Program-made: the position numbers and the translations under genes
The notes under the pieces: model-generated
Told to the model about the DNA's origin: nothing
Database searches by the model: none
What the model saw: only the letters and a program-made list of their open reading frames with translations
Assembly: GCF_024305245.1 (NCBI RefSeq)
Contig: NZ_JAMWYX010000004.1
Coordinates: 192,616-256,615, forward strand
Origin: Erythrobacter sp.
Lineage (GTDB): Bacteria; Pseudomonadota; Alphaproteobacteria; Sphingomonadales; Sphingomonadaceae
Reading direction: 5' to 3'
Length of the DNA stretch: 64,000 nucleotides
Shown here: positions 24,591 to 41,101 of the stretch, in pieces
Layout of the letters: the number at the start of each line of letters is the position of its first letter
Position numbering within the stretch: the first letter of the stretch is position 1

Positions 24591-25227
24591 CGTTCTTTCC
24601 GGCGATGATGTCGCGCGCCTGTTGTTCCAGCACCTTGAAGCGTTCGTAATCGGGCAGTTTCGAGCGGAACCATTCGGCGATTTTCAGCAGGTCCTCGCCG
24701 TAATTGCCGGTCGGGATCATCGGCGGACCGAAACTGACGATCCGCCGCGCATTGTCGGCAAAGGCGGGGACGATCGGCACGTTCGCCGCGCGGGCGATGT
24801 GGTAGAAGCCCGAGCGCCACTTGCCGTCGGACTTGCGCGTGCCTTCGCAGGCGATCACCAGCGCCAGTTCATCGCGTGCGGCGAATTCGGCGGCGACCTG
24901 CTCGGTGGCGTTGGCCTTGGCCGTGCGGTCGATCGGGATGCCGCCCATGTCGAGCATGAAGTTCTTCATCACGCCCTTGAACAGCGTGTGCTTGCCCATG
25001 AAGTTGGGTTTCACGCCCTCTTCATGCGTCGCGCCGGTGAAGAACACGAAATCCCAGTTCGAGGTATGCGGCGCGCCTGCCAGCACGTATTTTTTGAGAT
25101 GCCGGGGCAGCGGAGAGTCGATCTTCCAGCCCCTCGCATACCAGATGGCGAGGATGATCCGCCGCACGATGCGCGAAAGCAGCGTGGGCGTGCGCGGCGG
25201 CGCGGCGACGAATTTTTCCTGAAGCAA
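24583..25227 (-). CDS. 1-acyl-sn-glycerol-3-phosphate acyltransferase family protein
   Basis: PHTSNWD (HX4D), GGIPIDR, EGTR, SGFYHIA. TTG start after GGGAGG. Confidence 0.9.
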   Translation of the reverse strand: MLQEKFVAAPPRTPTLLSRIVRRIILAIWYARGWKIDSPLPRHLKKYVLAGAPHTSNWDFVFFTGATHEEGVKPNFMGKHTLFKGVMKNFMLDMGGIPIDRTAKANATEQVAAEFAARDELALVIACEGTRKSDGKWRSGFYHIARAANVPIVPAFADNARRIVSFGPPMIPTGNYGEDLLKIAEWFRSKLPDYERFKVLEQQARDIIAGKNDV

Positions 25228-25342
25228 AAGGCGCGCCCCTCCCAAAGGCCATGACCTTGTGGCCTATCTTGGGTTATTTACGCAAGTGGGGGCGTGGGGG
25301 TTTCAGATTTCACCCCGCGGATGGTGCGGTACTGATCCATAT

Positions 25343-26065
25343 TCACAGCATCAGCGGCAGTGCATTGCCAAAATTGTGCGCCGCGATTGGCAGCAGCAAG
25401 CTACCGGTGCGCTCGCGCAGCCACACCGCCAGCAACGATGGGATCGCGGTGAGGGCGAGGTAAACCGGATCGATCGCGAAGCCTTCGCCCGCCGAATAGG
25501 AGAACGCGTGGGCGAGCCCGAACACCAGCGACGACAATAGCGCCCCCCATCCCCAGTTGATGCCCAGCAATCTGATCCGTCCGCGGAACGCCTCGTTCAG
25601 GGCCAGCAAAAGGATGCCGCGGTAGAATATCTCCTCCTCAAGGCCGGGCATCGTCAGCTGGAACGCCACGGTTTCAGCGGTTGCATCGCCGGCATCGAAA
25701 GCCAGCGCGATGACGAGGAAGAACAGGATATATGCCGCGAACACGAAAGCTGCCGAGCGAAGCGAGCCGGGATGTTGCCGCAAGGTCAGCCCGGAGCGGC
25801 GCCATCCGAACAATCCCAGCGCCGCGACGCCAAGCGACAGGACCAGTGCCATCAGCTTGCCCTGCCAGTTCCAGTCGCTGTCCGGCAGGAGATCGGGGAT
25901 CAAGCCGTAAACGCGGGTGAGCATCGCATCATTGGCGAATACCAGCGCGGTTGCCACTACGAGCCAGCCGGGGGAGAAGTTCTTGCGGTCTGCCAACCCC
26001 AGCCCGGTTCCGACAAGGATGAGTATCCCGCAGATGGAGACAATCGCCGTGATCTGATCGCTCAT
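25343..26065 (-). CDS. CPBP/Abi (CAAX protease-like) intramembrane protein
   Basis: EEIFYRG, FGLAH, AHNFGN. Confidence 0.88.
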   Translation of the reverse strand: MSDQITAIVSICGILILVGTGLGLADRKNFSPGWLVVATALVFANDAMLTRVYGLIPDLLPDSDWNWQGKLMALVLSLGVAALGLFGWRRSGLTLRQHPGSLRSAAFVFAAYILFFLVIALAFDAGDATAETVAFQLTMPGLEEEIFYRGILLLALNEAFRGRIRLLGINWGWGALLSSLVFGLAHAFSYSAGEGFAIDPVYLALTAIPSLLAVWLRERTGSLLLPIAAHNFGNALPLML

Positions 26066-26093
26066 TCTCGCGCTCCCCTGCCTGTGCCTTGCG

Positions 26094-27701
26094 CTACATC
26101 CTGAACACGCCAAAGCGCGGCGCTTCCGCAATCGGCGCTTCCAGACACGCCGCCAGCGCCAACCCCAGCACATCGCGGGTCTGCACCGGGTCGACCACCC
26201 CGTCGTCCCAGAGGCGGGCGGTGGCGTAGTAGGGGTTGCCCTCGTCCTCGTATTTCTGGCGGATCGGCGCCTTGAACGCCTCGGCCTCGCGCTCGTCCCA
26301 CTTGTCGGCGTCGCGGTGGACGGTGGCGAGCACGCTCGCGGCCTGCTCTCCGCCCATCACCGAAATGCGCGCGTTGGGCCAGGTGAACATGAAGCGGGGC
26401 GAATAGGCCCGCCCGCACATCCCGTAATTGCCTGCGCCGAAGCTGCCGCCGATGACGACAGTCACCTTCGGCACGGTCGCGGTGGCGACGGCGGTGACCA
26501 GCTTCGCGCCGTGTTTGGCGATCCCTTCCGCCTCGTATTTCCCGCCGACCATGAAGCCGCTGATATTCTGGAGGAACAGCAGCGGGATGCGGCGCTGGCA
26601 GGCGAGTTCGATGAAATGCGCGCCTTTCTGCGCGCTTTCGCTGAACAGCACGCCGTTGTTGGCAAGAATAGCCACTGGCATCCCCCAGATATGGGCAAAG
26701 CCGCAGACCAGCGTGCTGCCGTAATGCGCCTTGAATTCGTGGAATTCGCTGCCGTCGACCAGCCGCGCGATCACTTCCTTCACGTCATAGGGCGCGCGCA
26801 CGTCATCGGGGATGATGGCGTAGAGATCGTCCGCGTCGAACTTGGGCGGGCGCGGGTCTTTGAGCGCCACGTCCGCCGCCGCGCCAGTATTCGCACCCAA
26901 GTGGCTGACGATATCGCGCACGATGGTGAGCGCGTGTTCGTCATTCTCGGCCAGGTGATCGACCACGCCCGATTTCTTCGCGTGCAGGTCCCCGCCGCCC
27001 AAGTCCTCCGCGGTGATTTCCTCGCCGGTGGCTGCCTTCACTAACGGGGGCCCCGCCAGAAAGATCGTGCCCTGATTGCGCACGATCACGCTCTCGTCCG
27101 ACATCGCGGGGACATAAGCGCCGCCCGCGGTGCAGGAGCCCATCACGCACGCGATCTGCGGGATGCCCAGCGCGCTCATGTTGGCCTGATTGAAGAAGAT
27201 CCGCCCGAAGTGGTCGCGGTCGGGGAAGACCTCGGCCTGATGCGGCAGGTTCGCGCCGCCGGAATCGACGAGGTAGATGCACGGCAGGCGGTTCTCCTGC
27301 GCGATCTCCTGCGCGCGCAGGTGCTTCTTGACCGTCATCGGGTAATAGGTGCCGCCCTTCACGGTCGCATCATTGCACACGATCATGCATTGGCGACCGG
27401 ACACGCGCCCCACGCCGCAGATCAGCGAGGCCGCGTTGACGTCACCTTCGTACATCCCGTTCGCGGCCAGTTGCCCGATTTCGAGGAAGGGCGAACCCGG
27501 GTCGAGCAACCGCTCGACCCGCTCACGCGGCAGCAGCTTGCCGCGCGACACGTGCCGTTCGCGGCTGCGCTCCGATCCGCCGAGAGCGGCCTGCGCCACG
27601 GCAGCGCGCAGTTCCTGTGCCAGCGCGTGGTTATGCGCAAACCGCGCCTTGGCCTCGGGGCTTTCGCGGTCGAGCTTCGATGTCAGGACAGGTGCGGTCA
27701 T
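26094..27701 (-). CDS. mccB: 3-methylcrotonyl-CoA carboxylase beta (carboxyltransferase) subunit
   Basis: [50 protein letters not shown]. Confidence 0.93.
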
Positions 27702-27982
27702 GTTGCCTTTGCTTTGCCTTTCGTCTCGGGGTCATGCCCCGACAGGAGGTAGCGATAGACCCCGACGAGGTTGATCGCCAAGAGCCCGATGTTCTGCCAG
27801 CCGATTCCTTCCCCCTCGTCGTTCATGAACCCCCAGGCGATCAGCGCGATCGAGGAAGTGACGAAGATCACGAAACCCCAGCCGGTTGGGCGTGGCCCGA
27901 GATTGAGCGACACGATCAGCGCCGCGACGAGGCCAGCGCCCGCGCCGTAATACTGGAGGGCGTTCAGGAGGTTTTCGTTCAT
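27698..27982 (-). CDS. Small 3-TM membrane protein
   Basis: [29 protein letters not shown]...GWGFVIF...NLVGVYRY. The stop overlaps the mccB ATG. Confidence 0.75.
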
Positions 27983-28053
27983 GTCCGGTCCTTGGCTGTG
28001 AAGCTGCTCCGGTAGAGGGTCGGATGCGCCTGCGCCCACCAACCATGTGAGGA

Positions 28054-28359
28054 TCACCGCTTGCGCACGAACTCGGCCCGCAGCACCAGCCCCTTGATGC
28101 CGGGATATTTGCAGTCGATTTCCTGCGCATCGCCGGTCAGGCGAATCGATTTGATCAGCGTGCCCTGCTTCAGCGTTTGCCCTGCGCCCTTGACTTCGAG
28201 ATCCTTGATGAGCGTCACCGCATCGCCATCGGCGAGGATGTTGCCGACCGCGTCGCGCACCTCGACCGCATCCTCCGCCGCCTGCTTGGCCGCAAGCTCG
28301 GACGCAGCCATCCACTCGCCGCTCGCCTCGTCATAGACGTAGTCTTCGTCGGTGCTCAT
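28054..28359 (-). CDS. PhnA/YjdM-like C-terminal-domain protein without the zinc ribbon
   Basis: VRDAVGNILADGDAVTLIKDLEVKG...KSIRL...IDCK...EFVRK. Confidence 0.88.
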   Translation of the reverse strand: MSTDEDYVYDEASGEWMAASELAAKQAAEDAVEVRDAVGNILADGDAVTLIKDLEVKGAGQTLKQGTLIKSIRLTGDAQEIDCKYPGIKGLVLRAEFVRKR

Positions 28360-28411
28360 TTGGGGGCTCCTGCGTTGCGAAGTAGCGATGGGGGCGGTGA
28401 TGGCGGTCGGC

Positions 28412-29092
28412 CTACCGTGGTGCAGTATCAATACGAAGTTCAAAGACTTTGTCGTTTTCCCGTTCGGCAGGCGGCGTACTCAGCCATGCTACAAGTTCAC
28501 GAAGACTTTCGCTTTGTATGCCTCCGGAGGGGTATTTCTCGGTATCAGATATGAACAGGAAAATGTCGGGTGAGGACACGAAGAACGTGTTGTAGATGCC
28601 GCTGCCTCGCATGAAACGCATGCGAGGGTTATCCATGCTGGCATTCTCAGCAACAATGATGGCCTGAATGGTCTCGGACTTCAGCCCCTTTGGCGGGAGA
28701 CGCCCATCCAGTCTGATCGCCAGATGCGGAAGATCATTGAAGCCTATTGCCTCAGCGGATCTCGCCACGTGGACAGTGCCGGGGCATTCATTTTTCAAGA
28801 TTACCGGTTCATAATCGCCTCGTAAGTGAGCCTTCTCTTCGTCTGGGCTCTCGGACAAAGCAGTGGGTATCCAATCGGTAGGCACGAACAGGCGTGTCTC
28901 ACGGAACCGTGCGATGCGAACATCGTGGACCACGCCTCGAGCATCCGTGACCAAATGCTTCTCTGCGTCTTTGCAGGTCAACGCTTGCCTCACTTTCGGC
29001 TCATCTTCGGCAGGCTGCTCTCCAGTGCAGGCAAGTAAGGTCAAGCAAAGCACGGATGTCCGAAGACCGCGCCTTAGACTTATGAACCTCAC
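28412..29092 (-). CDS. Orphan low-GC putative lipoprotein
   Basis: GTG start overlaps the ivd TGA. Basic N-terminus and lipobox-like LLAC. Visibly AT-richer than the flanks. No recognised domain. Confidence 0.65.
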   Translation of the reverse strand: MRFISLRRGLRTSVLCLTLLACTGEQPAEDEPKVRQALTCKDAEKHLVTDARGVVHDVRIARFRETRLFVPTDWIPTALSESPDEEKAHLRGDYEPVILKNECPGTVHVARSAEAIGFNDLPHLAIRLDGRLPPKGLKSETIQAIIVAENASMDNPRMRFMRGSGIYNTFFVSSPDIFLFISDTEKYPSGGIQSESLRELVAWLSTPPAERENDKVFELRIDTAPR

Positions 29093-30255
29093 CCCGCCGC
29101 CCCGATCAATTCGCGCCCGATCAGCATCCGGCGGATCTCGTTCGTGCCCGCGCCGATATCGAGCAGCTTGGCGTCGCGCATATACCGCTCCACCGGCCAA
29201 TCGAGCGTGTAGCCCGCGCCGCCCAGCGCCTGCACGCTTTCCGCCGCGACCTTGAAGGCGTTCTCCGACGCCAGCAGGATCACCCCTGCCGCATCGAACC
29301 GCGTCGTCTGCCCGGCGTCACACGCCTTGGCCACCGCGTAGGTATAGGCGCGGGCCGATTGCAGGGCGACATACATGTCGGCGACCTTGGCCTGCATCAG
29401 CTGGAAGCTCCCGATCGGCTTTCCGAACTGCTTGCGCTCGCGCAGGTAGGGGATCACCGTGTCGAGGCACGCCTGCATGATGCCGAGCTGCAATCCGGCC
29501 AGCACCACGCGCTCATAATCGAGCCCGCTCATCAGCACGCCGACACCGCCGTTCAGCGGCCCCATGATGCGGTCTTCGGGGATGAAGCAGTCGGTGAACA
29601 CCAGCTCGGCGGTGGGCGAGCCCTTCATGCCGACCTTCGAGATTTTCTGGCCGATGGCAAAACCCTCGTCGCCCTTCTCGATCAGGAAGGCGGTGATGCC
29701 GCGCGATCCGGCGTGCCCATCGGTCTTGGCATAGACCACCAGTGTGTCGGCTTCCGGCGCGTTGGTAATCCAGAACTTGGTGCCGTTGAGGACGTAGCCG
29801 CCCTGAACAGCCTCGGCCTTGAGCTTCATCGAGACCACGTCCGACCCCGCGCCCGCTTCGGACATGGCCAGCGACCCGACATGCTCGCCGGAGATCAGCT
29901 TGGGGAGGTATTTCGCCTTCTGCTCGTCATTCCCCCAACGGCGGATCTGGTTGAGGCACAGGTTCGAATGCGCGCCGTAGGACAGACCGACGCTGGCGCT
30001 GGCCCGCGAGACTTCCTCGACCGCGATCACGTGTTCGAGGTAGCCGAGGCCCAGCCCGCCCCATTCTTCCTCAACCGTGATGCCGTGCAGGCCCAGCGCG
30101 CCCATCGGCTCCCACAATTCGCGCGGGAAGCGGTCTTCGCGGTCGGTGCGTTCGGCCAAGGGCGCGATCTGCTCGTCTGCAAAACGTGCGGTGCTGTCGC
30201 GGATCATCGTGGCCGCTTCGCCAAGGTCGAAGTCGAAATCGGGGGTAGCGCGCAT
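29089..30255 (-). CDS. ivd: Isovaleryl-CoA dehydrogenase
   Basis: SYGAHSNLC, SLAMSEAGAGSDV, WITN, LMSGLDYER, RKQFG, IGAGTNEIRR. Confidence 0.95.
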   Translation of the reverse strand: MRATPDFDFDLGEAATMIRDSTARFADEQIAPLAERTDREDRFPRELWEPMGALGLHGITVEEEWGGLGLGYLEHVIAVEEVSRASASVGLSYGAHSNLCLNQIRRWGNDEQKAKYLPKLISGEHVGSLAMSEAGAGSDVVSMKLKAEAVQGGYVLNGTKFWITNAPEADTLVVYAKTDGHAGSRGITAFLIEKGDEGFAIGQKISKVGMKGSPTAELVFTDCFIPEDRIMGPLNGGVGVLMSGLDYERVVLAGLQLGIMQACLDTVIPYLRERKQFGKPIGSFQLMQAKVADMYVALQSARAYTYAVAKACDAGQTTRFDAAGVILLASENAFKVAAESVQALGGAGYTLDWPVERYMRDAKLLDIGAGTNEIRRMLIGRELIGAAG

Positions 30256-30369
30256 TTTATGTTCCTGCCGGAGTAATGATCGTTCTGCGGACGCGCATAG
30301 CAAGCGCTCACGCAAAGGCCAATCGCCTGCGCTGGCCCTCTGCGACTTTCGCCGTTAGGGAACAGCGGC

Positions 30370-31152
30370 ATGACGGCCACCGACCCCTTGCTCGTATTCG
30401 ACGCCGTGACCCGCGCTTACGGCGAAGTGCTGGCTGTTGCGGGCGTGAGCTGTGCGATTCAATCGGGCAGTTTCGTTGCGCTGGTGGGGGCCTCGGGCTC
30501 GGGCAAGTCGACGCTGCTCAAGATGGTCAACACGCTGGTCGAGCCGACCGGCGGGGCCGTGCTGTTCGGCGGCGAGGACGTATCCACACTGCCGCCCGCC
30601 CGCCTGCGCCGCCGGGTCGGCTACGTGTTTCAGGGCATCGGCCTGTTCCCGCACATGAGCGTGGCCGAGAACATCGCCATCGGCCCGCGCCTGACCGGCG
30701 AGAAACTGGGAGGCGAACGCATCACCGAACTGCTCGAACTGGTCGAGCTGGAAGCGGGAATGGCGAGCCGGATGCCTGATGAGCTTTCGGGCGGGCAACG
30801 CCAGCGCGTCGGCGTGGCGCGCGCGCTGGCGGGAGGGCCGGAACTGCTGCTGATGGACGAACCCTTCGGCGCGCTCGACCCGCTGACCCGCGATGCGCTG
30901 GGCACCAAGGTGCGCGAGTTGCATGAACGGCTCGGCCTCACCACGGTGATGGTGACGCATGACATGGCCGAGGCACTGCTGCTGGCCGACCGGGTGCTGG
31001 TGATGGATACTGGCAAACTGGTCGCTGACGCGACGCCGCGCGAATTGCTCGCGGGGGAAGGCGGTGACATCGCGCAAGGCCTCGTCGCCGTGCCGCGCCA
31101 GCAGGCCGAGCGTTTGGCGGCGTTGGAGAGTCTTGGGGAAACCCCGCGCTGA
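30370..31152 (+). CDS. Quaternary-amine (osmoprotectant) ABC transporter ATPase
   Basis: GASGSGKS, GYVFQGIGLFPH, LSGGQRQR, MDEPFGALD. No CBS domains. Confidence 0.92.
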   Translation: MTATDPLLVFDAVTRAYGEVLAVAGVSCAIQSGSFVALVGASGSGKSTLLKMVNTLVEPTGGAVLFGGEDVSTLPPARLRRRVGYVFQGIGLFPHMSVAENIAIGPRLTGEKLGGERITELLELVELEAGMASRMPDELSGGQRQRVGVARALAGGPELLLMDEPFGALDPLTRDALGTKVRELHERLGLTTVMVTHDMAEALLLADRVLVMDTGKLVADATPRELLAGEGGDIAQGLVAVPRQQAERLAALESLGETPR

Positions 31153-32690
31153 TGGGCGATATCTGGGAAATCCTGCCGGGCCTTGGCGACAAGCTGGCGG
31201 CGCATGTCGTGTTGTCGGCCAGCGCGATCGGACTTGCGATGCTGATCGCCTTGCCGATGGCGGTGTGGGCGAGCCGTTCGCCCACGGTGTCGCGCATCGC
31301 GCTGGGGCTGGCGAGCCTCGTCCAGACTATCCCCGCGCTCGCGCTGCTGGCGCTGTTCTTTCCGCTGTTGCTGAGCTTGCGCAGCGTGTTCGGCGAGGGA
31401 TTGCCGACCTTGGGCTTCCTCCCCGCGCTGATGGCGCTGACGCTCTATGCGCTGCTGCCGATATTGCGCAACGCGGTGACCGCGCAGGCCAATCTCGACC
31501 CCGGCGTGCTCGAAGCCGCCGACGGCGTGGGCATGACCAAGTGGCAGAAGCTCACGCTTGTGGAAGCGCCGCTGGCCGCGCCCTTCATCATGGCGGGCAT
31601 CCGCACGGCATCGGTGTGGACCATCGGTGCGGCAACGCTGGCCACCACCATCGGTCAGCCGAGCCTCGGCGATCCGATTTTCGCGGGCCTTCAGACCCAG
31701 AACTGGGCGCTGGTGCTGGCGGGATGTCTGGCGAGCGCAGGGCTGGCGCTGGCGGCGGATAACCTGCTGTGGGTGATCGAGGTCGGGTTGGCCAAGCGGT
31801 CGCGCTGGATGACTTTTGGCGGCATGGCGGTGGTGGCGCTGGGCATTGGCGCCGCGCTGTGGGCGCAAGGCGCGGGTAGCGATGAACGCCGCATCGTCAT
31901 CGCTTCCAAGCAGTTTTCCGAACAATATATCCTCGCCAAGCTGATCGGATCACGGCTGGAGGCGGCGGGATATGCAGTCGAATATCGCGACGGGCTGGGC
32001 AGCGCGGTGGTGCATTCCGCGGTCGCATCGTCCAGCATCGATATCTCGGTCGATTACACCGGTACGATCTGGACCAATTACCTGAACCGCGACGACAATC
32101 CCGGACGCGAGGCGATGTACGAGACGATCCGCGAGTGGGAAGCGCGAGAGAACGGCGTCAAGGTGCTGGGCCGTCTTGGGTTCGAAAACGCCTATGCCTT
32201 CGCCATGCGGCAGGACCGCGCGGCGGAGTTGAGCGTTACCTCGCTCACCGATCTGGCCGCGGTCGCCCCGCAATTGACGGTCGGCGGAGACCCTGAGTTT
32301 TTCGAGCGGCCCGAATGGATCGCGGTGCGCGATGCCTATGGCCTGCGGTTCGCAGGCAACCGCAACTTTGCGCCGACCTTCATGTACAATGCGCTGCAAT
32401 CGGGCGAGGCGGACGTGATCAGCGCCTATACCTCCGACGGGCGGATCGCGGCGGACAAGCTCGTGGTGCTCGAAGACCCCGAGGGCGCGCTGCCGAGCTA
32501 TGATGCGATGCTGATGCTCTCCCCCCGGATCGCGGACGACGCGGGCGTGATCGCGGCGCTCGAACCGTTGATCGGCGCGATCAGTGTCGAGGCGATGCGC
32601 GAGGCGAACCTTGCCGTCGACCGCGAGGACGAGGCAAAACTGACCCCGCGGGCGGCGGCAGCTGAACTGGCGGACAAGGTGGGGCTGTAA
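31152..32690 (+). CDS. Fused permease + substrate-binding protein, quaternary-amine ABC family
   Basis: QTIPALAL, ILRN, EAA loop (LEAADGVGM), then ASKQFSEQYIL, DYTGT, GFENAYAF, AYTSDG. Confidence 0.92.
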   Translation: MGDIWEILPGLGDKLAAHVVLSASAIGLAMLIALPMAVWASRSPTVSRIALGLASLVQTIPALALLALFFPLLLSLRSVFGEGLPTLGFLPALMALTLYALLPILRNAVTAQANLDPGVLEAADGVGMTKWQKLTLVEAPLAAPFIMAGIRTASVWTIGAATLATTIGQPSLGDPIFAGLQTQNWALVLAGCLASAGLALAADNLLWVIEVGLAKRSRWMTFGGMAVVALGIGAALWAQGAGSDERRIVIASKQFSEQYILAKLIGSRLEAAGYAVEYRDGLGSAVVHSAVASSSIDISVDYTGTIWTNYLNRDDNPGREAMYETIREWEARENGVKVLGRLGFENAYAFAMRQDRAAELSVTSLTDLAAVAPQLTVGGDPEFFERPEWIAVRDAYGLRFAGNRNFAPTFMYNALQSGEADVISAYTSDGRIAADKLVVLEDPEGALPSYDAMLMLSPRIADDAGVIAALEPLIGAISVEAMREANLAVDREDEAKLTPRAAAAELADKVGL

Positions 32691-32717
32691 TTCCCGCTTT
32701 CGCAGGAGCGCACCGCA

Positions 32718-33149
32718 TCAACTCACCCGCTTCCACACCTGTGTCTGGCAGAACGGGCCGATGCAGCCTTTGACCTCGAGCACGTTCGCGCCCTTGCGGC
32801 GGATCACCGAACGATAGCTCTTGCCGCTTTTGGGATCATAGATCCGCCCGCGCCACAGGTCGCCATCCGCGGTGAAGCCCGACAGGATCGGCAGGCCGAG
32901 CAGGCGGCGCTTGCGCAAGGCAGGATCGGGATTGTTGATGTCGCGCTGGTCAAGGCCGTCGGGCGGCGGGACAAGGAACTTGTCGACCGTGCCGCACACG
33001 GTCTTGTCCGATGCAGCCCTGCCGCACGGCTTGATCGCGACCACCGCGTCCTTTTCGGCCGTCACCCAGCGCCCGGCCACCGGCTCCGCCGCATGGGCGG
33101 GTGCCGCCGCTGCGGCCACGATGATCAGCGCGCCCAGCCACTTCATCAT
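32718..33149 (-). CDS. DUF2147 family secreted protein
   Basis: Signal peptide, GRWVT, DINNPDP, GRIYDPKSGKSY, VKGCIG. Confidence 0.9.
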   Translation of the reverse strand: MMKWLGALIIVAAAAAPAHAAEPVAGRWVTAEKDAVVAIKPCGRAASDKTVCGTVDKFLVPPPDGLDQRDINNPDPALRKRRLLGLPILSGFTADGDLWRGRIYDPKSGKSYRSVIRRKGANVLEVKGCIGPFCQTQVWKRVS

Positions 33150-35419
33150 GCAAACCCCACCCCATACGGCCAGCGCCGCCCGCAAATGCCCAGCACCTTG
33201 AACAGGGTGCCCATCTGGTTGTCCTCCACCAGCCGGTCACGCTGCCGCTTGAGCTTGTCGACCTCGCCCGGATTGCGCAGCTGGAGCGCCTCGGTGCGGG
33301 TGTCGATGCCCATCTGGCGCAGCCATTCGCCCTGATACTGCAGGCCCATCACGTCCGCACCCTGTTCGCGCGCGACGTGGGCGAGCAGTTCGAAATCCAC
33401 ATGGGCGGTGATGTCGGCCTCGCCCGGATGGGCGAAGACATCGACCTTCTTGTGCGCCTTCAACGCCTGCAAGGTGGTACCGGCGCTGAGTTCCATGTGG
33501 CCATAGTCGATGATCAGCGCCCCGCCGCCCTGATTTTTCAGGCGCTGCGCGATTTCGGTCATCACCGCGACCGCCGCCGGGCTGGTTTCGATGGTTGCGC
33601 CCTGCGCTGCCCTGAGCCAGCTGGGCGGGACGATGGAATCCATCCGTTCCTTGCCCGCGCCGAACACGAAGTTCTCGCCATCAAGCCCGACCATCCGTTC
33701 GAACCAGCCATCGGCGGACCGCACCAGCTGGTGGATCGGCAGGGCATCGAAAAATTCGTTGGCAACGATCAGCAGCGGCGCATCATCGGGCAAGGTCGAA
33801 AGATCGTGGTGGTGGTGGCAACCGGGGAATGCCTCGCGCTGCAACTGCCGCAGTGTCGGCGAAGTTTCGACGAAGTGCACCTCCGGCGCGAATTCGTAAC
33901 GGGCCGCGGTCGTCAGCGCGTCTTTCGCCAGCGTGCCGCGTCCCGGGCCGAGTTCGACATAGTGGATGCACTTGCGGCTGCCCATCCGCACCCACAGATC
34001 CGCGAACCACAGCCCGATCAGTTCGCCGAACATCTGGCTGACTTCCGGCGCGGTGATGAAATCGCCCTGATCGCCCAGCGGATCGCGGCTGGCATAGTAA
34101 CGCGCATTGCTCTCGGCCATGAACTGCGCAAGGCTGATCGGGCCGGTCTCGCGGATCAGGCGGCGGAAGCTTTTGCCCAGATCGATCTTGGCGCGGGCGG
34201 CGGCTTCGGCTTCGACTTCGGCTTCGAGGCGCGCCTGTTCTTCGGCTGCGGCCTTGGCTTCCGCTTCGAGACGGGCCTGTTCTTCGGCTTCGATGCGCGC
34301 GCGCTCGGCCGTTTCGGCCTCGGCTTTCGCCTTGGCTTCAGCTGCCAAGCGGGCCTTTTCCTCGGCTTCCGCCTGTGCGCGAGCGGCGGCTTCGGCCTTC
34401 GCTTTGGCCTCGGCTTTGGCCTGCGCTTCCGCCTCTGCTTGTGCCTTGGCCTCTGCTTCGGCTTTCGCCTTGGCCTCCGCTTCGGCCTTGGCCTGCGCTT
34501 CGGCCCGTGCTTTCGCTTCGGCTGCAGCTTTCGCCTTCGCTTCTGCCTCGGCTTTCGCCTTGGCTTCGGCGTCCCGGCGCGCCTGTTCGGCGGCGGCCTT
34601 GGCGGCGGCTTCGGCTTCGGCCTTGGCGCGGGCTTCGGTTTCGCGGCGGGCCTGTTCTTCGGCCAGTGCCTTTTCCTTGGCTTCCTTGCGCGCCTTGGCT
34701 TCGGCTTCGGCCCTGGCCTGCGCTTCGGCGGCGAGCCGTGCGCGTTCGGCGGCTTCGGCTTCGCGGCGGGCACGCGCTTCGGCTGCGGCCTTCTCGCGCG
34801 CTTCGCGTTCGGCGGCGGCGCGGGCTTCGGCTTCGGCCTTGGCGCGCTCGCGTTCTTCGCGCATCAGCCGCGCGCGTTCCTCGGCTTCGGCCTTCAGGCG
34901 TGCGGCAGCTTCGGCCTTGGCTTTCGCCTCGGCTTCGGCCCGTGCCTTGGCTTCGGCTTTGGCCAGCGCGCGGGCTTCGGCTTCGGCACGGGCTTTTTCT
35001 TCCGCTTCGGCGCGGGCGCGGGCTTCGGCCTCGGCTTTGGCCTTCGCCTCGGCTTCGGCCTTCGCGTCCGCTTCCGCCTTTGCTGCTGCCTCTGCTCTTG
35101 CGCGCTCCTGCGCTTCGGCAAGGGCACGGGCTTCGGCGTCAGCTTTTGCCTTGGCTTCGGCAGCGGCGTGCTCGCGCGCGGCGGCTTCGGCTTTCGCCGC
35201 CGCCTGCGCTTCGGCCTGCGCTGCCGCGCCGGATTCCGCCGTCTCCCGCTCCGCAGGCCCGGTTTCAGGGTCGATCAGCCGCAGCCCGCCGCGCCATGCG
35301 CGCGGGGCATCGTCGCCCGATGTCAGGCCGGAGCGACGCCCCCACTCGCCAGCGGTTTCGTCCGCAGCGCGAAGAACACGACAATCAATCCAATCAAGAT
35401 CAGCGGTATGCTTAGCCAT
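33146..35419 (-). CDS. MidA/NDUFAF7-type SAM-dependent methyltransferase with a long N-terminal Ala/Glu/Lys/Arg repeat
   Basis: C-terminal GDFITAPEVSQMFGE, ELGPGRGTL, ANEFFDALP, IDYG, DITAHVDF, MGTLFKV. The frame is continuous with the repeats. True start uncertain (35419 overlaps lgt by 97 nt; a CTG near 35326 is possible). Confidence 0.88.
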   Translation of the reverse strand: MAKHTADLDWIDCRVLRAADETAGEWGRRSGLTSGDDAPRAWRGGLRLIDPETGPAERETAESGAAAQAEAQAAAKAEAAAREHAAAEAKAKADAEARALAEAQERARAEAAAKAEADAKAEAEAKAKAEAEARARAEAEEKARAEAEARALAKAEAKARAEAEAKAKAEAAARLKAEAEERARLMREERERAKAEAEARAAAEREAREKAAAEARARREAEAAERARLAAEAQARAEAEAKARKEAKEKALAEEQARRETEARAKAEAEAAAKAAAEQARRDAEAKAKAEAEAKAKAAAEAKARAEAQAKAEAEAKAKAEAEAKAQAEAEAQAKAEAKAKAEAAARAQAEAEEKARLAAEAKAKAEAETAERARIEAEEQARLEAEAKAAAEEQARLEAEVEAEAAARAKIDLGKSFRRLIRETGPISLAQFMAESNARYYASRDPLGDQGDFITAPEVSQMFGELIGLWFADLWVRMGSRKCIHYVELGPGRGTLAKDALTTAARYEFAPEVHFVETSPTLRQLQREAFPGCHHHHDLSTLPDDAPLLIVANEFFDALPIHQLVRSADGWFERMVGLDGENFVFGAGKERMDSIVPPSWLRAAQGATIETSPAAVAVMTEIAQRLKNQGGGALIIDYGHMELSAGTTLQALKAHKKVDVFAHPGEADITAHVDFELLAHVAREQGADVMGLQYQGEWLRQMGIDTRTEALQLRNPGEVDKLKRQRDRLVEDNQMGTLFKVLGICGRRWPYGVGFA
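34187..35228 (-). repeat. Degenerate coding repeat (AEAKA/AEARA units), about 345 aa
   Basis: Dense (GC)TTCGGC-type units on the + strand, with synonymous variation between copies. Confidence 0.9.
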
Positions 35420-36219
35420 TGCCCCATCGATAGCCCTGTCCGGGCCGCAAAGTCAGCCAATTGTGCATCGGGCTGACGGAAAAATTCATTAACGAAACGC
35501 GCGATTCCCATGCCGAGCGTGAACACGCCGACCAGCAAGCCGGGGCGATAGCGCGCGCGGGTTTTCCAGAACAGCAGCAACATCACGATCAGCAGCGCGA
35601 GACCTTCCAGCCCGGCCTGATAGAGCTGGCTGGGGTGCCGTGCGAGTTCGTCCGCGCCGGGGAACACCATCGCCCATGGCACGTCGGCCGGACGGCCCCA
35701 CAATTCGCCGTTGATGAAATTGGCGAGGCGCCCCAGCAGCATCCCCATCGGCACGCTGACCGCGACGTAATCGGCCACGCGCAGGAAGTTCAGCTTGTCG
35801 CGCCATGCGACGTAAATCATCGCTGCCGCCACGCCGGCCAGCCCGCCGTGGAACGCCATCCCGCCGTCCCACAGCCGCAGCAATTTCCAGCTGATGAAGC
35901 CATCGCCCGAAAAATCGGTGAAGGCGCTGGGAATGCCGGTCTCGCCCCCGGTGTAGAACATCGCGTAGCCCAGCCGCCCGCCGAGAATCACCCCCAGCGT
36001 GCAGTAGAACACCAGATCGTCGGCATGGCGCTGCGCCATCGGCGCGCCGGGTTCCCGCAGCATCCGCGAGGTATGCCACCAGGCGAAGAAAATCCCGAAA
36101 AGATAGGCCAGCGAATAATATCGCAGGGTGAAGAACCCCAGTTCGATGCCCGGACGCAGCCCGAGGTCCGACCAGTAGATCGGATCGGCGGCGCTGCTTG
36201 CGGCAAGTAGTGACAGCAC
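35323..36219 (-). CDS. lgt: Prolipoprotein diacylglyceryl transferase
   Basis: LRYYSLAY, GGRLGY, WDGGMAFHGG, GRLANFINGELWG, RHPSQLY, EFFRQPD. Confidence 0.97.
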   Translation of the reverse strand: MLSLLAASSAADPIYWSDLGLRPGIELGFFTLRYYSLAYLFGIFFAWWHTSRMLREPGAPMAQRHADDLVFYCTLGVILGGRLGYAMFYTGGETGIPSAFTDFSGDGFISWKLLRLWDGGMAFHGGLAGVAAAMIYVAWRDKLNFLRVADYVAVSVPMGMLLGRLANFINGELWGRPADVPWAMVFPGADELARHPSQLYQAGLEGLALLIVMLLLFWKTRARYRPGLLVGVFTLGMGIARFVNEFFRQPDAQLADFAARTGLSMGQWLSIPLILIGLIVVFFALRTKPLASGGVAPA

Positions 36220-36411
36220 GGAGCGAACCCCTTAATGATGATGATATGCCGTATCGGCGGGCCTGATGTGGCCCCGTTGCGCTGGCGCTTCTGGCACAGC
36301 GCGCGGGGCAGGGGAAGGGGCGCAGGCGCGCAGGCAGATAATGGGATCGGAAGACCGGACAGGCGCACGCCGCAGCGGTCTTCCCGTAAATGAGAGAGGA
36401 AAGGACACCGC

Positions 36412-38127
36412 ATGCCCACCCAGCTGGACAATGCGCTTGAAGCGATCATCACCGGCCTGACCGCACCCGGCCAGCCCTTCGCCCTCGCGCCTTATGTGCG
36501 CGACGGGGTGGAAATGCCCGCTTTCGCCGCCGCCCCGCCGAGCCTTGCGCACTATTTCGCGCATTTCTGCAACGAACACCGCGATCTGCCCTTCCTTGTC
36601 GATGGCGAGGTGCGGCTGACCTTCGGCGAGACCTACAGCGCCGCGACCTGCGTTGCGGAAAGTCTGGTGCAGGATCATGGCATCCAGAAGGGTGACCGGA
36701 TTGCCATTGCCGCGCGCAATTCTGCCAACTGGATGATCGCCTATATGGGCATCCTGATGGCTGGCGGCTGCGCCACATTGCTCAACGGCTTTTCGTCCGG
36801 AGAGGAACTGGCTTACGGAATCGATCTGGCCGAATGCAAACTGGTGCTGGCCGATGAAGGCCGCGCCGCCCGACTTAAAGGGCACGCCCACAGCGCGAAG
36901 CTGGTCTTGTTCAGCCACGGCAATGCGCCTTCCGAAGGGCTCGCCGATCTCTGGGCTTTGCCCGAGGGCACCAGTGCGGCAATGGCGATGCTGAGTCAGA
37001 TCGGCCCGGACGATATCGCCACCATCCTCTATACCTCCGGTTCGACCGGCAGGTCCAAGGGCGCATGGTCGGATCACCGCGGGGTCGTGCACGGGGTGAT
37101 GAATTATGTCGCCCAGAGCGCGATGGCCAAGGTGCATATCGAAAGCCAGGAAGGCCCGATGACGGTGCAGCCCTGCGCGCTGGTCGCGGTGCCGCTGTTC
37201 CACGTGACGGGCGAAGTGCCGCTGTTCCTGCAAAGCTTCGCGATCGCGCGCAAGCTGGTGCTGATGCCCAAGTGGGACGCAGGTCTCGCGATCCGGCTGA
37301 TGGCGGAAGAAAAGGTGACCTATTTCGTCGGCGTGCCGCTGATGAGCTATGAAATCGCGAGCCACCCCGACCGTGCCAAGTACGACCTTTCGGCGTGCAA
37401 GAGCTTTGCCGCTGGCGGCGCGCCGCGTCCGGTCGAACACGTCACGCGGATCAAGGAAGCCTTCCCCGGCGGGTTCCCGCTGCTCGGCTATGGCCTTACT
37501 GAAACCAACGCGGTCGGCTGCGGCAATTTCAACGAGAACTACCTCGCCAAGCCAGGCTCGACCGGGCGGGCGAGCAAGCCGATGGTCGAGCTCGCGATTC
37601 TCGACGATCTCGGCAACGCGCTGCCGCAGGGGCAGGTGGGCGAGGTGTGCATTCGCAGCGTCGCCAATTTCCGCGGCTACTGGAAGAACGACGAGGCGAC
37701 CAAGGCCGCCTTCACCGACAACGGGTTCTTCCGCACCGGCGATCTCGGCTATCTCGATGCCGACGAATACCTGTTCATCGTCGATCGCAAGAAGGACATC
37801 ATCATCCGCGGCGGCGAGAATATCTCCTGCATCGAGGTGGAAGATGCGATCTACGCGCATGACGACATCGGCGAATGTTCGGTGTTCGGCCTGCCCGACG
37901 AACGCTTCGGCGAAGTCCCGGCGGCTGTGTACCGCATGAAGGAAGGCCACGCCGCGATCACGCCCGCCGAACTGCGCGCCTTCCTGCTGGAACGCATCGC
38001 CCCGTTCAAGGTGCCGCTGGAACACCAGATCTGGTTCACCGAGGACGCCTTGCCCCGGCTCGGCACCCAGAAGATCGACAAGCGCAGCGTCAAGGCGCGC
38101 TACGGCGATGACAAGGTGGCGGCCTGA
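36412..38127 (+). CDS. Long-chain acyl-CoA synthetase (AMP-binding)
   Basis: YTSGSTGRSKG, GYGLTET, FRTGDLG, RKKDIIIRGGENI, QKIDK. Confidence 0.93.
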   Translation: MPTQLDNALEAIITGLTAPGQPFALAPYVRDGVEMPAFAAAPPSLAHYFAHFCNEHRDLPFLVDGEVRLTFGETYSAATCVAESLVQDHGIQKGDRIAIAARNSANWMIAYMGILMAGGCATLLNGFSSGEELAYGIDLAECKLVLADEGRAARLKGHAHSAKLVLFSHGNAPSEGLADLWALPEGTSAAMAMLSQIGPDDIATILYTSGSTGRSKGAWSDHRGVVHGVMNYVAQSAMAKVHIESQEGPMTVQPCALVAVPLFHVTGEVPLFLQSFAIARKLVLMPKWDAGLAIRLMAEEKVTYFVGVPLMSYEIASHPDRAKYDLSACKSFAAGGAPRPVEHVTRIKEAFPGGFPLLGYGLTETNAVGCGNFNENYLAKPGSTGRASKPMVELAILDDLGNALPQGQVGEVCIRSVANFRGYWKNDEATKAAFTDNGFFRTGDLGYLDADEYLFIVDRKKDIIIRGGENISCIEVEDAIYAHDDIGECSVFGLPDERFGEVPAAVYRMKEGHAAITPAELRAFLLERIAPFKVPLEHQIWFTEDALPRLGTQKIDKRSVKARYGDDKVAA

Positions 38128-38193
38128 TCCGCTGACCTGCCTGCGCCCCAATCTTGCGCCTCGCGCCGGGGGCTTGATGCGGGAGATATTCCC

Positions 38194-40953
38194 GTGAGCC
38201 CCCGGCGTGTGCCCGGCCAGCGGGCGATCATCGACCGGCGCGTGCTGGCCGACGAGATCGCCGCGCTGTTCGCGGCCGGCGGCGAAGGCGCGCGCGCCGA
38301 TATCGTCAAGAGCTTGCGCGGCGCGCTCGACGCGGGCCGGGCCGAGTTGGAACGCAGGCTGGCTGAAACGCCGTCAGCCGGACATGATGTCACCGGCGGC
38401 TATTCCTTCCTCACCGACCAGTTGCTCCGGGTGATCCACGATCACGTGACCACCCATCTCTATCCGGTGCCGAACCGCACGCAGGCCGAACGGCTCGCGG
38501 TACTGGCCGTGGGGGGCTACGGGCGGGCCGAGATGGCGCCGCATTCGGATATCGACATCGCCTTCATCACTCCGATGCGCCGCTCGCCGTGGTGCGAACA
38601 GGTGATCGAGGCAATGCTGTATCTGCTGTGGGATCTGGGCCTGAAGGTCGGCCATTCCAGCCGCACCGTCTCCGATGCGATGCGCATGGCGAAGGAAGAC
38701 CTGACCATCCGCACCGCGCTGCTCGAAGGGCGGCTGGTATGGGGCGATCAGGCGCTTTACGAAGAATTGCGGAGCCGGTTCTGGAACGACGTCGTGAAAG
38801 GCAATGAACGCCAGTTCCTGACCCAGAAGCTGGCCGAGCGCGACGCCCGGCACAAGCGGATGGGCGACAGCCGCTATGTCGTTGAACCCAACATCAAGGA
38901 CGGCAAGGGCGCGCTTCGCGACCTGCAGACGCTCTACTGGATCGGCAAATATGTCCACCGGGTGCAGAACGCCGCCGAACTGGTCGATGTCGGGCTGCTG
39001 ACTCGCAGCGAATACCGCAGCTTCCGCCGGGCCGAAGGGTTCCTGCTGGCGGTGCGCAGTCACATGCACATCCTGACTGACCGCGCCGAGGATCGCCTGA
39101 CCTTCGACCTGCAGCGGCAGGTGGCCGAACGGATGCATTTCGCCGACCGTCCGGGCAAGAGCGCGGTCGAACGGTTCATGCAATACTACTTCCTGCAGGT
39201 GAAGCGGGTCGGCAGCCTGACAGGCGTGTTCCTTGCTCACATGGACGAGGAATTCGCCAAGAAACGCACCCGCAGCGGCTTTTTCGCCGGCTGGACCCAG
39301 CGTCCGCGCGCGTTCAAGGGCTACGTGGTCGATGGCGGACGGCTGCGTGCGCCGGGCGACGACTGGTTCCGCGCCGATCCGGTGCGACTGATCGAAGTGT
39401 TCCAGCTGGCCGAGGCCGAGGGGCTGGAAGTCCACCCCGAAACCATGCGGCAGGCCGACCGCGATTCCAAACTGATCGACGCCAAGATGCGCCGCGACAA
39501 GCGCGCCAATGCGCTGTTTCTCGATCTGCTGGCCGGGCGCAAGGATCCCGAGACCGCCCTGCGCTGGATGAACGAGGCCGGGGTGTTCGGCCGGTTCGTG
39601 CCCGATTTCGGCCGGGTCAACGCGCAGATGCAGTTCGATATGTATCACCACTACACGGTCGACGAACACACGATCCGCGCCATCGGGCTGCTCAGCCAGA
39701 TCGAGCGCGGGCTGCTGACCGCCGACCACCCGCGCGCCACCCGCGAATTTCCCAAGCTCGCCTCGCGCCGGGCGCTGTATGTCGCGGTGCTGCTGCACGA
39801 TATCGCCAAGGGGCGCGGCGGCGATCATTCGGTGCTGGGGGCGGATGTCGCGCATGAATTATGCCCGCGTTTCGGACTCGACGAGAAGGAGACCGATCTG
39901 GTCGCCTGGCTGGTGCTGCAACACCTGTTGATGAGCCGCACCGCGCAGAAACGCGACCTCACCGATCCCAAGACGATCGAGGATTTCGTGGCCGAGGTGC
40001 AAAGCCTCGAACGGCTGCGCAACCTTGCGATCCTGACTGCGGTGGACATCCGCGCGGTCGGGCCGGGGACGTGGAACAGCTGGAAGGGGCAGCTGCTGGG
40101 CGAGCTTTACGATGCCGCGCAGGAACGGCTGCGGCTGGGCCACAAGGGCAAAGGCCGCAAACAGCGGGTCGCGGCAAAGAAGGACGCGGTTGCGCGCCTG
40201 CTGGGCGAACGCGATCATCTGGTCGACAATATCGGCGCGCTGCTGTCCGATGCCTACTGGATTGCCGAGCCCGAAGACATCATCGCCAGCAACCTTGTGC
40301 AATATGATGCGGCGCAGGCGGCGCAGGATCAGCTGTCGATCCATTGCGAACCGGACGAGACCCGGGGCGCGACCCGCGTCAATGTCATCGCCGCCGATCA
40401 CCCGGGCCTGTTCTACCGCATGGCGGGCGGCATCCATCTGGCCGGCGCGAACATCATCGACGCGCGCATCCACACCACCCGGAACGGTTTTGCAGTCGAT
40501 AATTTCCTGGTGCAGGACCAGCATGGTCAGCCGTTCCGCGAGGCGGCGCAGATCGCGCGCATCCAGAAAGGCATCCGCGAGGCGCTGCTGGCGGAGATCG
40601 AACTGGTGCCCCGGCTGGCTGCGCGCCCGCTTGCCCATTCGCGCGCCCGCGCGTTCGATGTCGCGCCGCGGGTGGGGTTCGACAATGACGCCTCGAACCA
40701 TTTTACCGTGATCGAAGTGACCGCGCGCGATCGCCCGGCGCTGCTCAACCGGCTGGCGCACGCGCTCTACAAGGCCAACCTGATCGTGCATTCGGCACAT
40801 ATCACCGCCTATGGCGAAGCGGCGGCGGACACTTTCTATGTCACCGATCTGACCGGAGCGAAGGTCAAGGCGCCCGAGCGGCGCGCCGAAATCGAGGCCG
40901 CCCTGCTCGACGCCGCCAGCGACCGCAGGCAGCAACAGCTTGAAAAGGCATGA
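38194..40953 (+). CDS. glnD: [Protein-PII] uridylyltransferase
   Basis: AVGGYGR...SDID, EPNIKDGKG, YHHYTVDEH, LLHDIAKG, two C-terminal ACT domains. Confidence 0.97.
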   Translation: MSPRRVPGQRAIIDRRVLADEIAALFAAGGEGARADIVKSLRGALDAGRAELERRLAETPSAGHDVTGGYSFLTDQLLRVIHDHVTTHLYPVPNRTQAERLAVLAVGGYGRAEMAPHSDIDIAFITPMRRSPWCEQVIEAMLYLLWDLGLKVGHSSRTVSDAMRMAKEDLTIRTALLEGRLVWGDQALYEELRSRFWNDVVKGNERQFLTQKLAERDARHKRMGDSRYVVEPNIKDGKGALRDLQTLYWIGKYVHRVQNAAELVDVGLLTRSEYRSFRRAEGFLLAVRSHMHILTDRAEDRLTFDLQRQVAERMHFADRPGKSAVERFMQYYFLQVKRVGSLTGVFLAHMDEEFAKKRTRSGFFAGWTQRPRAFKGYVVDGGRLRAPGDDWFRADPVRLIEVFQLAEAEGLEVHPETMRQADRDSKLIDAKMRRDKRANALFLDLLAGRKDPETALRWMNEAGVFGRFVPDFGRVNAQMQFDMYHHYTVDEHTIRAIGLLSQIERGLLTADHPRATREFPKLASRRALYVAVLLHDIAKGRGGDHSVLGADVAHELCPRFGLDEKETDLVAWLVLQHLLMSRTAQKRDLTDPKTIEDFVAEVQSLERLRNLAILTAVDIRAVGPGTWNSWKGQLLGELYDAAQERLRLGHKGKGRKQRVAAKKDAVARLLGERDHLVDNIGALLSDAYWIAEPEDIIASNLVQYDAAQAAQDQLSIHCEPDETRGATRVNVIAADHPGLFYRMAGGIHLAGANIIDARIHTTRNGFAVDNFLVQDQHGQPFREAAQIARIQKGIREALLAEIELVPRLAARPLAHSRARAFDVAPRVGFDNDASNHFTVIEVTARDRPALLNRLAHALYKANLIVHSAHITAYGEAAADTFYVTDLTGAKVKAPERRAEIEAALLDAASDRRQQQLEKA

Positions 40954-41101
40954 TTGCAAACCCCGGTAGATAGAAAGCCCTGAAGGTGTGGCGTGCGTGC
41001 TTCATGCTCGCGCTAATGCCTTTTTCTGCTGTGGAGATAGGTTGCAATCGTGTGACTTATTGCTAGGGCAGCCAGCCTCAACTCAGGGAGAGTTAAAAGA
41101 C

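Follow-up and report, generated by a model that had tools for sequence, protein, structure and literature searches.

Organization of the midA locus

The DNA analyzed in this work, hereafter the window, is a stretch of 64,000 nucleotides from Erythrobacter sp. (NCBI RefSeq assembly GCF_024305245.1, contig NZ_JAMWYX010000004.1, positions 192,616 to 256,615; all positions below are those of the window), and its subject is the minus-strand gene midA, in which a long Ala/Glu/Lys/Arg segment is joined in frame to a MidA/NDUFAF7-type methyltransferase. The full open reading frame (ORF) occupies 33146..35419 on the minus strand, begins with an ATG and encodes 757 aa plus a stop codon. Based on the ORF list and Pfam, the protein consists of three parts: an N-terminal module of 62 aa; a rod of 349 aa or 1047 nt (aa 63-411; 34187..35233, minus strand), predicted from its composition, its charge order and AlphaFold2 to be a single alpha-helix; and the MidA domain. 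The gene upstream is lgt (35323..36219, minus strand; PF01790, E=3e-68), which encodes prolipoprotein diacylglyceryl transferase and whose 3' end contains the midA start. The two genes share a dual-coding overlap of 97 nt (35323..35419, minus strand), recognized in a comparison of 40 loci, where the first 32 midA codons are read in the +1 frame of the last 32 lgt codons.

An initial annotation, made from the sequence of the window alone, had described a normal MidA to which a long helical segment is fused in frame, and the 757-aa ORF with its PF02636 match bears this out. It overlooked the conserved N-terminal peptide (N-peptide), the start 97 nt inside lgt, the inconsistent annotation of the gene in databases and the Pro-rich linker that takes the place of the rod in some relatives, all of which are described below.

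The catalytic domain

The class I S-adenosylmethionine (SAM) methyltransferase domain of MidA/NDUFAF7 type covers aa 412-757 (33149..34186, minus strand), with the Pfam core at aa 467-692 (window 33344-34021). This core matched PF02636 (Methyltransf_28) with E=1e-57 and 195.8 bits against a cut-off of 23.3, over profile positions 1-247 of 249, and it was the sole Pfam match in the 757-aa protein. The C-terminal ~350 aa were also matched by two known structures, PDB 1ZKD from Rhodopseudomonas palustris (E=7e-73; query residues 7-339 to chain residues 7-353) and 5ZTZ, the Dictyostelium NDUFAF7 homologue MidA (E=1e-52). In the SAM-binding motif ELGPGRGTL, residues E489, G491, G493, R494, G495, T496 and L497 were invariant among 43 aligned sequences. 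From homology, and from the modification found in Paracoccus complex I, the likely substrate of the enzyme is the conserved Arg of the NuoD/49-kDa subunit (NDUFS2) of complex I, which would be dimethylated symmetrically. It has been reported that dimethyl-Arg is present in the 49-kDa subunit of complex I from the alphaproteobacterium Paracoccus and absent in E. coli, and that the known MidA target is a specific structured site in NDUFS2 with the target motif HRGxE (PMC8042128).

The length of the protein is unusual for a family of single-domain enzymes of about 350-400 aa, as had been claimed at the outset. Among the 150 best MidA cluster representatives at 50% identity, lengths were about 240-430 aa in all but three, and these three were P0121, which belongs to the clade of the window (693 aa), and the unrelated fusions P0192 and P0236. 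Within these 150 nearest representatives the rod was confined to the window clade, and at 757 aa the window protein is a variant architecture of the family. The two unrelated fusions, both from other lineages, were judged by eye only: in P0192 (646 aa) the C-terminus of MidA is fused to a PgeF/YfiH-like domain, and in P0236 (556 aa) a DUF559-like region precedes MidA.

The rod is a real coding segment under purifying selection

Misassembly of the repeat had to be considered. Logan contigs from runs X1 and X2 (algae-associated metagenome) span 32900-35800 with 0 differences and 0 gaps relative to the window, so the check for misassembly called for in the initial annotation came out in favor of the rod. 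A related strain in run X5 (runoff metagenome) differed by 14 substitutions and an in-frame 6-nt insertion (TTGCTC, plus strand) at 35079, which indicates that close strains vary in rod length.

The longest exact DNA repeat in the rod was 24 nt, identical 8-aa peptide units differed on average at 3.65 of 24 nt, and Tandem Repeats Finder (TRF) returned degenerate periods only, of 6-78 nt with 63-90% matches. These short exact repeats and the synonymous divergence argue for an old repeat rather than fresh slippage. Together with the codon evidence below, they uphold the earlier view of an old, selected repeat.

Loci were fetched from species-representative genomes, 51 via the catalytic domain and 80 via the N-terminal motif; the set of 40 loci referred to throughout represents the Erythrobacter/Porphyrobacter/Altererythrobacter group. 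In all 40, the MidA frame was free of stops from the conserved ATG to the catalytic domain, and each of the other two frames contained 1-19 stops. The ratio of nonsynonymous to synonymous substitution rates (dN/dS) of the rod was 0.06-0.30 in close species pairs. Between the window and L001 it was 0.22 for the rod and 0.04 for the catalytic domain, and among the indel-free 306-aa rods of L016, L018 and L119 it was 0.07-0.08, most catalytic domains lying at 0.03-0.15. All 13 indels in the cleanest close pairs (L053/L056, L014/L018 and L006/L037) were multiples of three; this phasing is clean only in the closest pairs, of which these three are cited, since between more distant sequences the alignment breaks up into compensating gaps whose lengths are not divisible by three. 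The open frame, the dN/dS values and the indel phase thus indicate that the rod is coding in the MidA frame under purifying selection. By codon comparison, the N-peptide, the rod and the catalytic domain are all under purifying selection, and the full-length fusion is very probably translated as one protein.

Stops before the catalytic domain were seen in four loci, apparent exceptions that look like assembly problems. One of them (L083) contains a run of Ns, and the other three (L105, L108 and L109) come from one series of metagenome-assembled genomes (MAGs), with frameshifts in the rod for L108 and L109 and in the catalytic domain for L105. Rather than real gene splits, these cases most probably reflect indels introduced by assembly of repetitive, GC-rich DNA.

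Long ORFs are also found on the opposite strand. A 699-aa Gly/Phe/Leu/Arg-rich ORF (33377-35476, plus strand) spans the whole of midA, and it was rejected as a gene because the Pfam match and the selection signal lie on the minus strand; it was regarded as a mirror artefact of the GC-rich repeat. The plus-strand ORFs 34107-35492 and 34375-35415, which run across the repeat, were likewise taken as mirror artefacts of its stop-poor, GC-rich sequence.

The start codon lies inside lgt

The start ATG was invariant in 40 of 40 loci. In 36 of them it is placed 97 nt within lgt and in the other four 103-106 nt within it, and a stop in the midA frame is found 10 codons upstream of it. The in-frame canonical starts in the window are M1 (35419), M186 (34864), TTG358 (34348) and M434 (34120), so that, as first stated, the stretch from the repeat to the catalytic domain indeed contains no ATG. 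A start at M434 would cut off conserved or invariant N-terminal residues of MidA. Internal starts, where present in the 40 loci, were at non-conserved positions, and six loci had no in-frame ATG, GTG or TTG at all throughout the extension.

The overlap leaves a trace in lgt as well. Wobble variability of lgt was 0.10 in the overlap vs 0.22 in the 39 lgt codons upstream of it (Mann-Whitney p=0.007), and the wobble sites at which a change would alter W10, D12, C13, R14 or R17 of MidA were almost invariant, several of them never varying. This constraint on lgt wobble positions indicates that two reading frames are under selection in the overlap.

In most loci of Novosphingobium and Croceicoccus (L038-L047), the lgt stop lies at most 31 nt from a normal MidA start, and the extension is missing. 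The N-peptide and the rod are therefore a lineage-specific gain, and since the lgt stop abuts the MidA start in these outgroup loci, the first 32 codons in the Erythrobacter clade were made by overprinting the 3' end of lgt. Within the compared genomes, acquisition of the rod in one lineage is thereby shown.

Public records mostly lack this start. The window protein is stored in the database as a 572-aa entry starting at M186, the database lengths of the top 120 relatives are 324-611 aa (some NCBI entries having 324 aa), and the conserved ATG is used in 6 of these 120. The position of the coding start inside lgt is probably the reason why public annotations usually miss the N-peptide. This amounts to a systematic annotation error, by which a functional N-terminal peptide is missing from most public protein records.

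The N-terminal peptide

Across the clade, the first ~50 residues follow the consensus M-A-D-x-T-A-x-x-D-W-[IV]-D-C-[RH]-x-L-R ... G-L ... W-R-x-x-L-R-L-I-D-P-E, in which two boxes can be distinguished. Box 1, D9-W-I-D-C-R-V-L-R17 (35369..35395, minus strand), is located within the lgt overlap; among 26 aligned orthologues, C13 and R17 were invariant and W10, D12 and L16 were kept in at least 90%. Box 2, W42-R-G-G-L-R-L-I-D-P-E52 (35264..35296, minus strand), lies 3' of the lgt stop, and its residues L-R-L-I-D-P were conserved in 35-40 of the 40 loci. Its variation was nearly all synonymous, at third codon positions (CTC/CTG, CGG/AGG, GAT/GAC, CCC/CCG/CCT). As box 2 is outside the overlap, this synonymous variation indicates selection at the protein level.

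A marine subclade has a longer box 2, LRLIEPDG(T/S)xxx(V/L), and judging from its residues this extended form looks like a strand-turn-strand element. In two marine MAGs (L122 and L125), within the first ~240 codons counted from position 3501, the rod is preceded by an insert rich in Gly, Ser and Thr (GSGTGTGTGSGAG...) and by a duplicate of the LRLIE.DG motif. A likeness of box 2 (LRLIEPDG) to the N-terminal beta-strand of NuoD/NDUFS2 (VLRLxLELDGE) and of IF3 (VRLIDxDG) found no corresponding hit in the PDB search and is not relied on here. A lipoprotein, suggested by the invariant Cys13 in a gene beside lgt, was rejected: the N-terminus has no signal peptide or lipobox and is acidic and hydrophilic.

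No fold was confidently predicted for the N-terminal ~60 aa. In the AlphaFold2 model of P0105, an orthologue with a short linker (439 aa), residues 1-59 had a predicted local distance difference test (pLDDT) score below 50 and were not packed on the catalytic domain. An undocked N-terminus of low pLDDT, as in that model, fits a short linear motif that binds a partner in trans.

The rod is predicted to be a single alpha-helix

The rod contains 46% Ala, 23% Glu, 11% Lys and 11% Arg (38 Arg residues), one Gly and no Pro. Glu, Lys and Arg together make up 45% of the residues vs 46% for Ala, which places the rod nearer to Ala-based (EAAAK)n helices than to classical ER/K segments. Its net charge is near neutral (-7). 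The repeating unit is eight residues long, A-E-A-K-A-K-A-E, in agreement with a DNA period of 24 nt, and like charges recur at i+8 (z=12).

Pairing of Glu and Lys at i+4 stabilizes helices in Ala-based peptides and in ER/K domains. In the window rod, opposite-charge pairs at i+4 numbered 109 vs 35.9±4.8 in shuffled sequences (z=15.2), and like-charge pairs at the same spacing were depleted (8 vs 35.4, z=-5.4); no enrichment of opposite-charge pairs was found at i+3. Such enrichment and depletion, with no seam and no Pro, are what is expected of a single alpha-helix (SAH) domain. AlphaFold2 predicted helices at residues 62-327 (266 aa) and 338-410 (73 aa), with pLDDT up to 93 and lower elsewhere, and a fully helical rod would measure about 52 nm (349 aa x 0.15 nm). 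A coiled coil is not indicated, as non-Ala hydrophobic residues number 12 of 349 (3.4%) without a heptad seam and the charge period is about 8 residues, not 7. The initial annotation had put forward a rod of about 50 nm that is either a single helix or a coiled coil; charge order and AlphaFold2 speak for the former, and the scarcity of hydrophobic residues speaks against the latter. We hold with good confidence that the rod forms a single alpha-helix and not a coiled coil. It has been reported that single alpha-helices serve as semi-flexible linkers in both prokaryotic and eukaryotic proteins (PMC5378345).

No transmembrane (TM) segment was found in the protein, the highest 19-residue Kyte-Doolittle mean being 1.13, in the catalytic core, and at most -0.02 in the first 62 aa. 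With neither a TM segment nor a signal peptide, the protein should be cytoplasmic, as was claimed from the start.

Distribution of the architecture and variation of the linker

A DNA scan for box 1 in 185,579 species genomes gave 96 confirmed loci. All those named below phylum belong to Erythrobacteraceae or Sphingomonadales, save one MAG labelled Synechococcus. Among 67 intact orthologues, the linker was 43-482 aa long (median 296), and the i+4 enrichment of opposite charges exceeded z=5 in 65 of them (z 6.7-17.7). Close relatives can differ by large indels, such as L120 and L129 with linkers of 383 vs 202 aa. At the other extreme, the shortest linker accompanying an N-peptide was 43 aa, and none of the 67 orthologues carried the N-peptide without a linker. 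The charged residues vary in kind: in the marine subclade the rod has 3-7% Arg and 17-24% Lys, with Lys substituting for Arg.

In a few relatives the chemistry of the linker itself has changed. An Erythrobacter MAG (L058, on the same contig as L048; 3501-5120) keeps the N-peptide and has a 146-aa Pro/Glu-rich linker of PEPAP type, and an Altererythrobacter MAG (L036) keeps the N-peptide with a linker of Lys, Pro, Ala and Glu. The N-peptide and the catalytic domain are thus kept while the linker is free in length and chemistry, suggesting a spacer function for the rod, with a functional element at either end; the exchange of the rod for a Pro-rich linker is the strongest argument for this role. 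No published description of an architecture with N-peptide, rod and MidA was found in full-text literature searches.

Proposed mechanism and alternative explanations

The best overall explanation, which we hold with moderate confidence, is that midA encodes a full-length tethered enzyme of three parts. Starting from the ATG at 35419, one cytoplasmic protein of 757 aa would be made, with an N-terminal docking peptide, a spacer and a catalytic head. Opposite charges four residues apart, which involve almost all charged residues of the spacer, would stabilize it as a monomeric helix about 50 nm long, and the head, a SAM-dependent arginine methyltransferase of the MidA/NDUFAF7 type, would act on the conserved Arg of NuoD/49-kDa. 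The N-peptide would dock on a partner, for which Lgt or the inner membrane (from the genetic coupling) and a complex I assembly intermediate (from the presumed job of the enzyme) are candidates only. The rod would then be a semi-rigid spacer, a leash of 16-72 nm depending on the species, which determines the place of the encounter between enzyme and substrate and the effective concentration at which it occurs; effective concentrations are known to be set by the architecture of a tether (bioRxiv 10.1101/2021.08.13.456233). We infer the single helix in solution, the docking, the partner and the substrate, and these parts are held less firmly than the fusion itself. The tether with a docking peptide is a plausible reading to which we give somewhat less than even chances. 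A more specific version is tentative: the overprinted peptide might anchor the methyltransferase through the 16-72 nm helix, perhaps to Lgt or the inner membrane, such that NuoD methylation is confined to a membrane-proximal zone of complex I assembly and helix length becomes an evolvable reach.

Several observations weigh against the tethered enzyme or parts of it. No meaningful Pfam match was obtained for the N-peptide at E<=10, and a PDB profile search with it gave only designed helical repeats (E>=0.24). ATG1 is not preceded by a strong Shine-Dalgarno sequence, and it is uncommon for translation to be initiated within another translated gene. In some species a GTG or ATG coincides exactly with the boundary of rod and catalytic domain, so a short isoform could be made there alongside the full-length protein. 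The only RNA-type run, X19, yielded a single 234-nt contig of low depth on the catalytic part, which is uninformative on transcript structure and start. As to the helix, duplication of units rather than selection could account for part of the i+4 charge pattern, and AlphaFold tends to draw such sequences as helical whatever their true oligomeric state. Finally, the roughly 10-fold range of linker length (43-482 aa) speaks against a precise ruler.

Conserved ends joined by a variable linker would also be expected if the N-peptide acted as an autoinhibitor or pseudosubstrate by binding the catalytic domain of the same molecule, with the rod setting the effective concentration of this contact like an engineered ER/K linker. 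We regard such intramolecular regulation as unlikely. The conserved arginines of box 2 (WR..LRL) would suit it, as does the general dependence of effective concentration on tether architecture (bioRxiv 10.1101/2021.08.13.456233), but AlphaFold2 showed no docking of the N-terminus in the 439-aa P0105, a stiff 50-nm rod would make the effective concentration very low, and box 2 is unlike the HRGxE target motif of NDUFS2 (PMC8042128).

It is likewise improbable that the rod is a tolerated low-complexity expansion, that is, a harmless insertion prone to slippage, with the N-terminal conservation mostly due to constraint on lgt. The 10-fold range of lengths, the large indels between close relatives such as L120 and L129, a rod dN/dS that is 2-5 times the catalytic-domain value in many pairs and the location of box 1 in the lgt overlap are all in line with such an expansion. 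However, with values of 0.06-0.30 the dN/dS of the rod stays far below 1, 65 of the 67 orthologues hold the i+4 charge order despite sequence turnover, and the linker is never wholly lost in intact orthologues bearing the N-peptide (minimum 43 aa). Furthermore, box 2 is conserved beyond the overlap, with synonymous variation, and lgt wobble positions are under extra constraint within it.

The initial annotation had proposed that the rod tethers, polymerizes or condenses the enzyme. Tethering stands as the most plausible function, whereas self-assembly of the rod into coiled coils, filaments or condensates that concentrate or polymerize the enzyme is very unlikely. A long helical segment and weak compositional matches to TolA and bactofilin models, all below cut-off, could be cited for it; against it are the 12 of 349 non-Ala hydrophobic residues with no hydrophobic heptad seam, a charge pattern that favors intrahelical i+4 salt bridges at a net charge of -7, and the Pro-rich linker of relatives, which fits a spacer and not an assembly interface.

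There is hardly any room for a mature enzyme without the rod, be it through a short internal-start product only or through an assembly artefact. Gene callers do pick internal starts (572 aa for the window, 324 aa in some NCBI entries), and in some species a start codon sits at the rod/catalytic boundary. Yet independent contigs agree with 0 differences, the frame is open in 40 of 40 genomes, the rod is under purifying selection in the MidA frame, and in the window TTG358 is followed by no canonical start before M434, which would delete invariant MidA residues. A ~40-kDa product from an internal non-ATG start, which the first annotation had named as a refuting case, is contradicted by the invariant upstream ATG and by the six genomes without any internal start. 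Nor, in all likelihood, are the rod arginines methylated in cis by the attached MidA domain, as had also been suggested: although 38 Arg lie beside an arginine methyltransferase in the window, the marine subclade has 3-7% Arg and 17-24% Lys, so that charge and not arginine is conserved, and the site that MidA is known to target, in NDUFS2, is specific and structured (PMC8042128).

Neighboring genes

Directly 3' of midA lies a DUF2147 gene with a signal-peptide-like N-terminus (32718..33185, minus strand; PF09917, E=6e-29). The start listed for it, a TTG, overlaps the stop of midA; the true start is more likely an ATG nearby. This gene is probably in one operon with midA, the likely order being lgt-midA-DUF2147; DUF2147 also adjoins midA in a distant orthologous locus (L109), and the adjacency of lgt and midA was present in every complete locus inspected. 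Two envelope genes, lgt and DUF2147, thus stand on either side of a cytoplasmic enzyme. The other genes around midA (window 24583-43456) form an ordinary housekeeping set, including an acyltransferase, an Rce1-like protease, a carboxyltransferase, PhnA/YjdM, an acyl-CoA dehydrogenase, an OpuA-type betaine ABC transporter (30370-32690), an acyl-CoA synthetase, GlnD and a TonB-dependent receptor. No nuo genes are present in this region (24583-43456), and no other ORF rich in Ala, Glu, Lys and Arg was found in the 64-kb window.

Significance of the architecture

The window protein represents a new architecture for a known enzyme; it does not amount to a new kind of system. Among very long single alpha-helices, the best-known examples come from eukaryotic motors and from periplasmic TolA. 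If a soluble housekeeping enzyme of a bacterium does carry a conserved and selected helix of 50 nm, this would offer a natural test case for the relation of tether length to enzyme reach in a cell only about 500 nm wide, and the natural length variants (43-482 aa) as well as the natural change of chemistry to a Pro-rich linker are ready for comparison. The locus is also a clean example of a new protein N-terminus obtained by overprinting a neighboring gene, and it may provide a tractable entry to the function of bacterial MidA in complex I maturation, the role presumed from homology.

Comparison with known systems

With the MidA/NDUFAF7 family (PF02636; 1ZKD, 5ZTZ), the window protein shares a C-terminal part of 346 aa that is a full-length, well-conserved member with an invariant GPGRG motif, and the gene lies beside lgt as in other Sphingomonadales. 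It differs in that canonical proteins begin their catalytic alignment within about 25 residues of the N-terminus, whereas here 411 extra residues precede it and the start is inside lgt.

SAH or ER/K domains, such as the lever extensions of myosins VI and X, usually contain more than 75% Glu, Lys and Arg. The rod resembles them in being a long, uninterrupted helix-former with dense opposite-charge pairs from i to i+4 and no seam. Unlike them, it has 46% Ala with a strict A-x-A-x alternation and a charge period of 8 residues, and it is very long (349 aa, with relatives up to 482 aa) and is found in a bacterial cytoplasmic enzyme. Variable length and use as a spacer between two functional elements are further features in common (PMC5378345).

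The composition of the rod is similar to that of TolA domain II, and the TolA model TIGR02794 (NCBIfam) scored 37.1 bits over aa 130-244, within the rod only and below the cut-off of 59.45. TolA domain II and the Pro-rich spacer of TonB are tethers that span the bacterial envelope, and the Ala/Glu/Lys helix or Pro/Glu rod of the window clade parallels these two solutions for spanning a distance. In contrast to TolA, the window protein lacks an N-terminal TM anchor, a domain III and a signal peptide, ends in a MidA domain, and is cytoplasmic rather than periplasmic.

As in overprinted bacterial genes, an N-terminal coding segment has been made in an alternative frame, here that of the 3' end of lgt, with both frames constrained. 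Unlike in those cases, the overlap is only 32 codons long and supplies the N-terminus of an old enzyme, not a new stand-alone protein.

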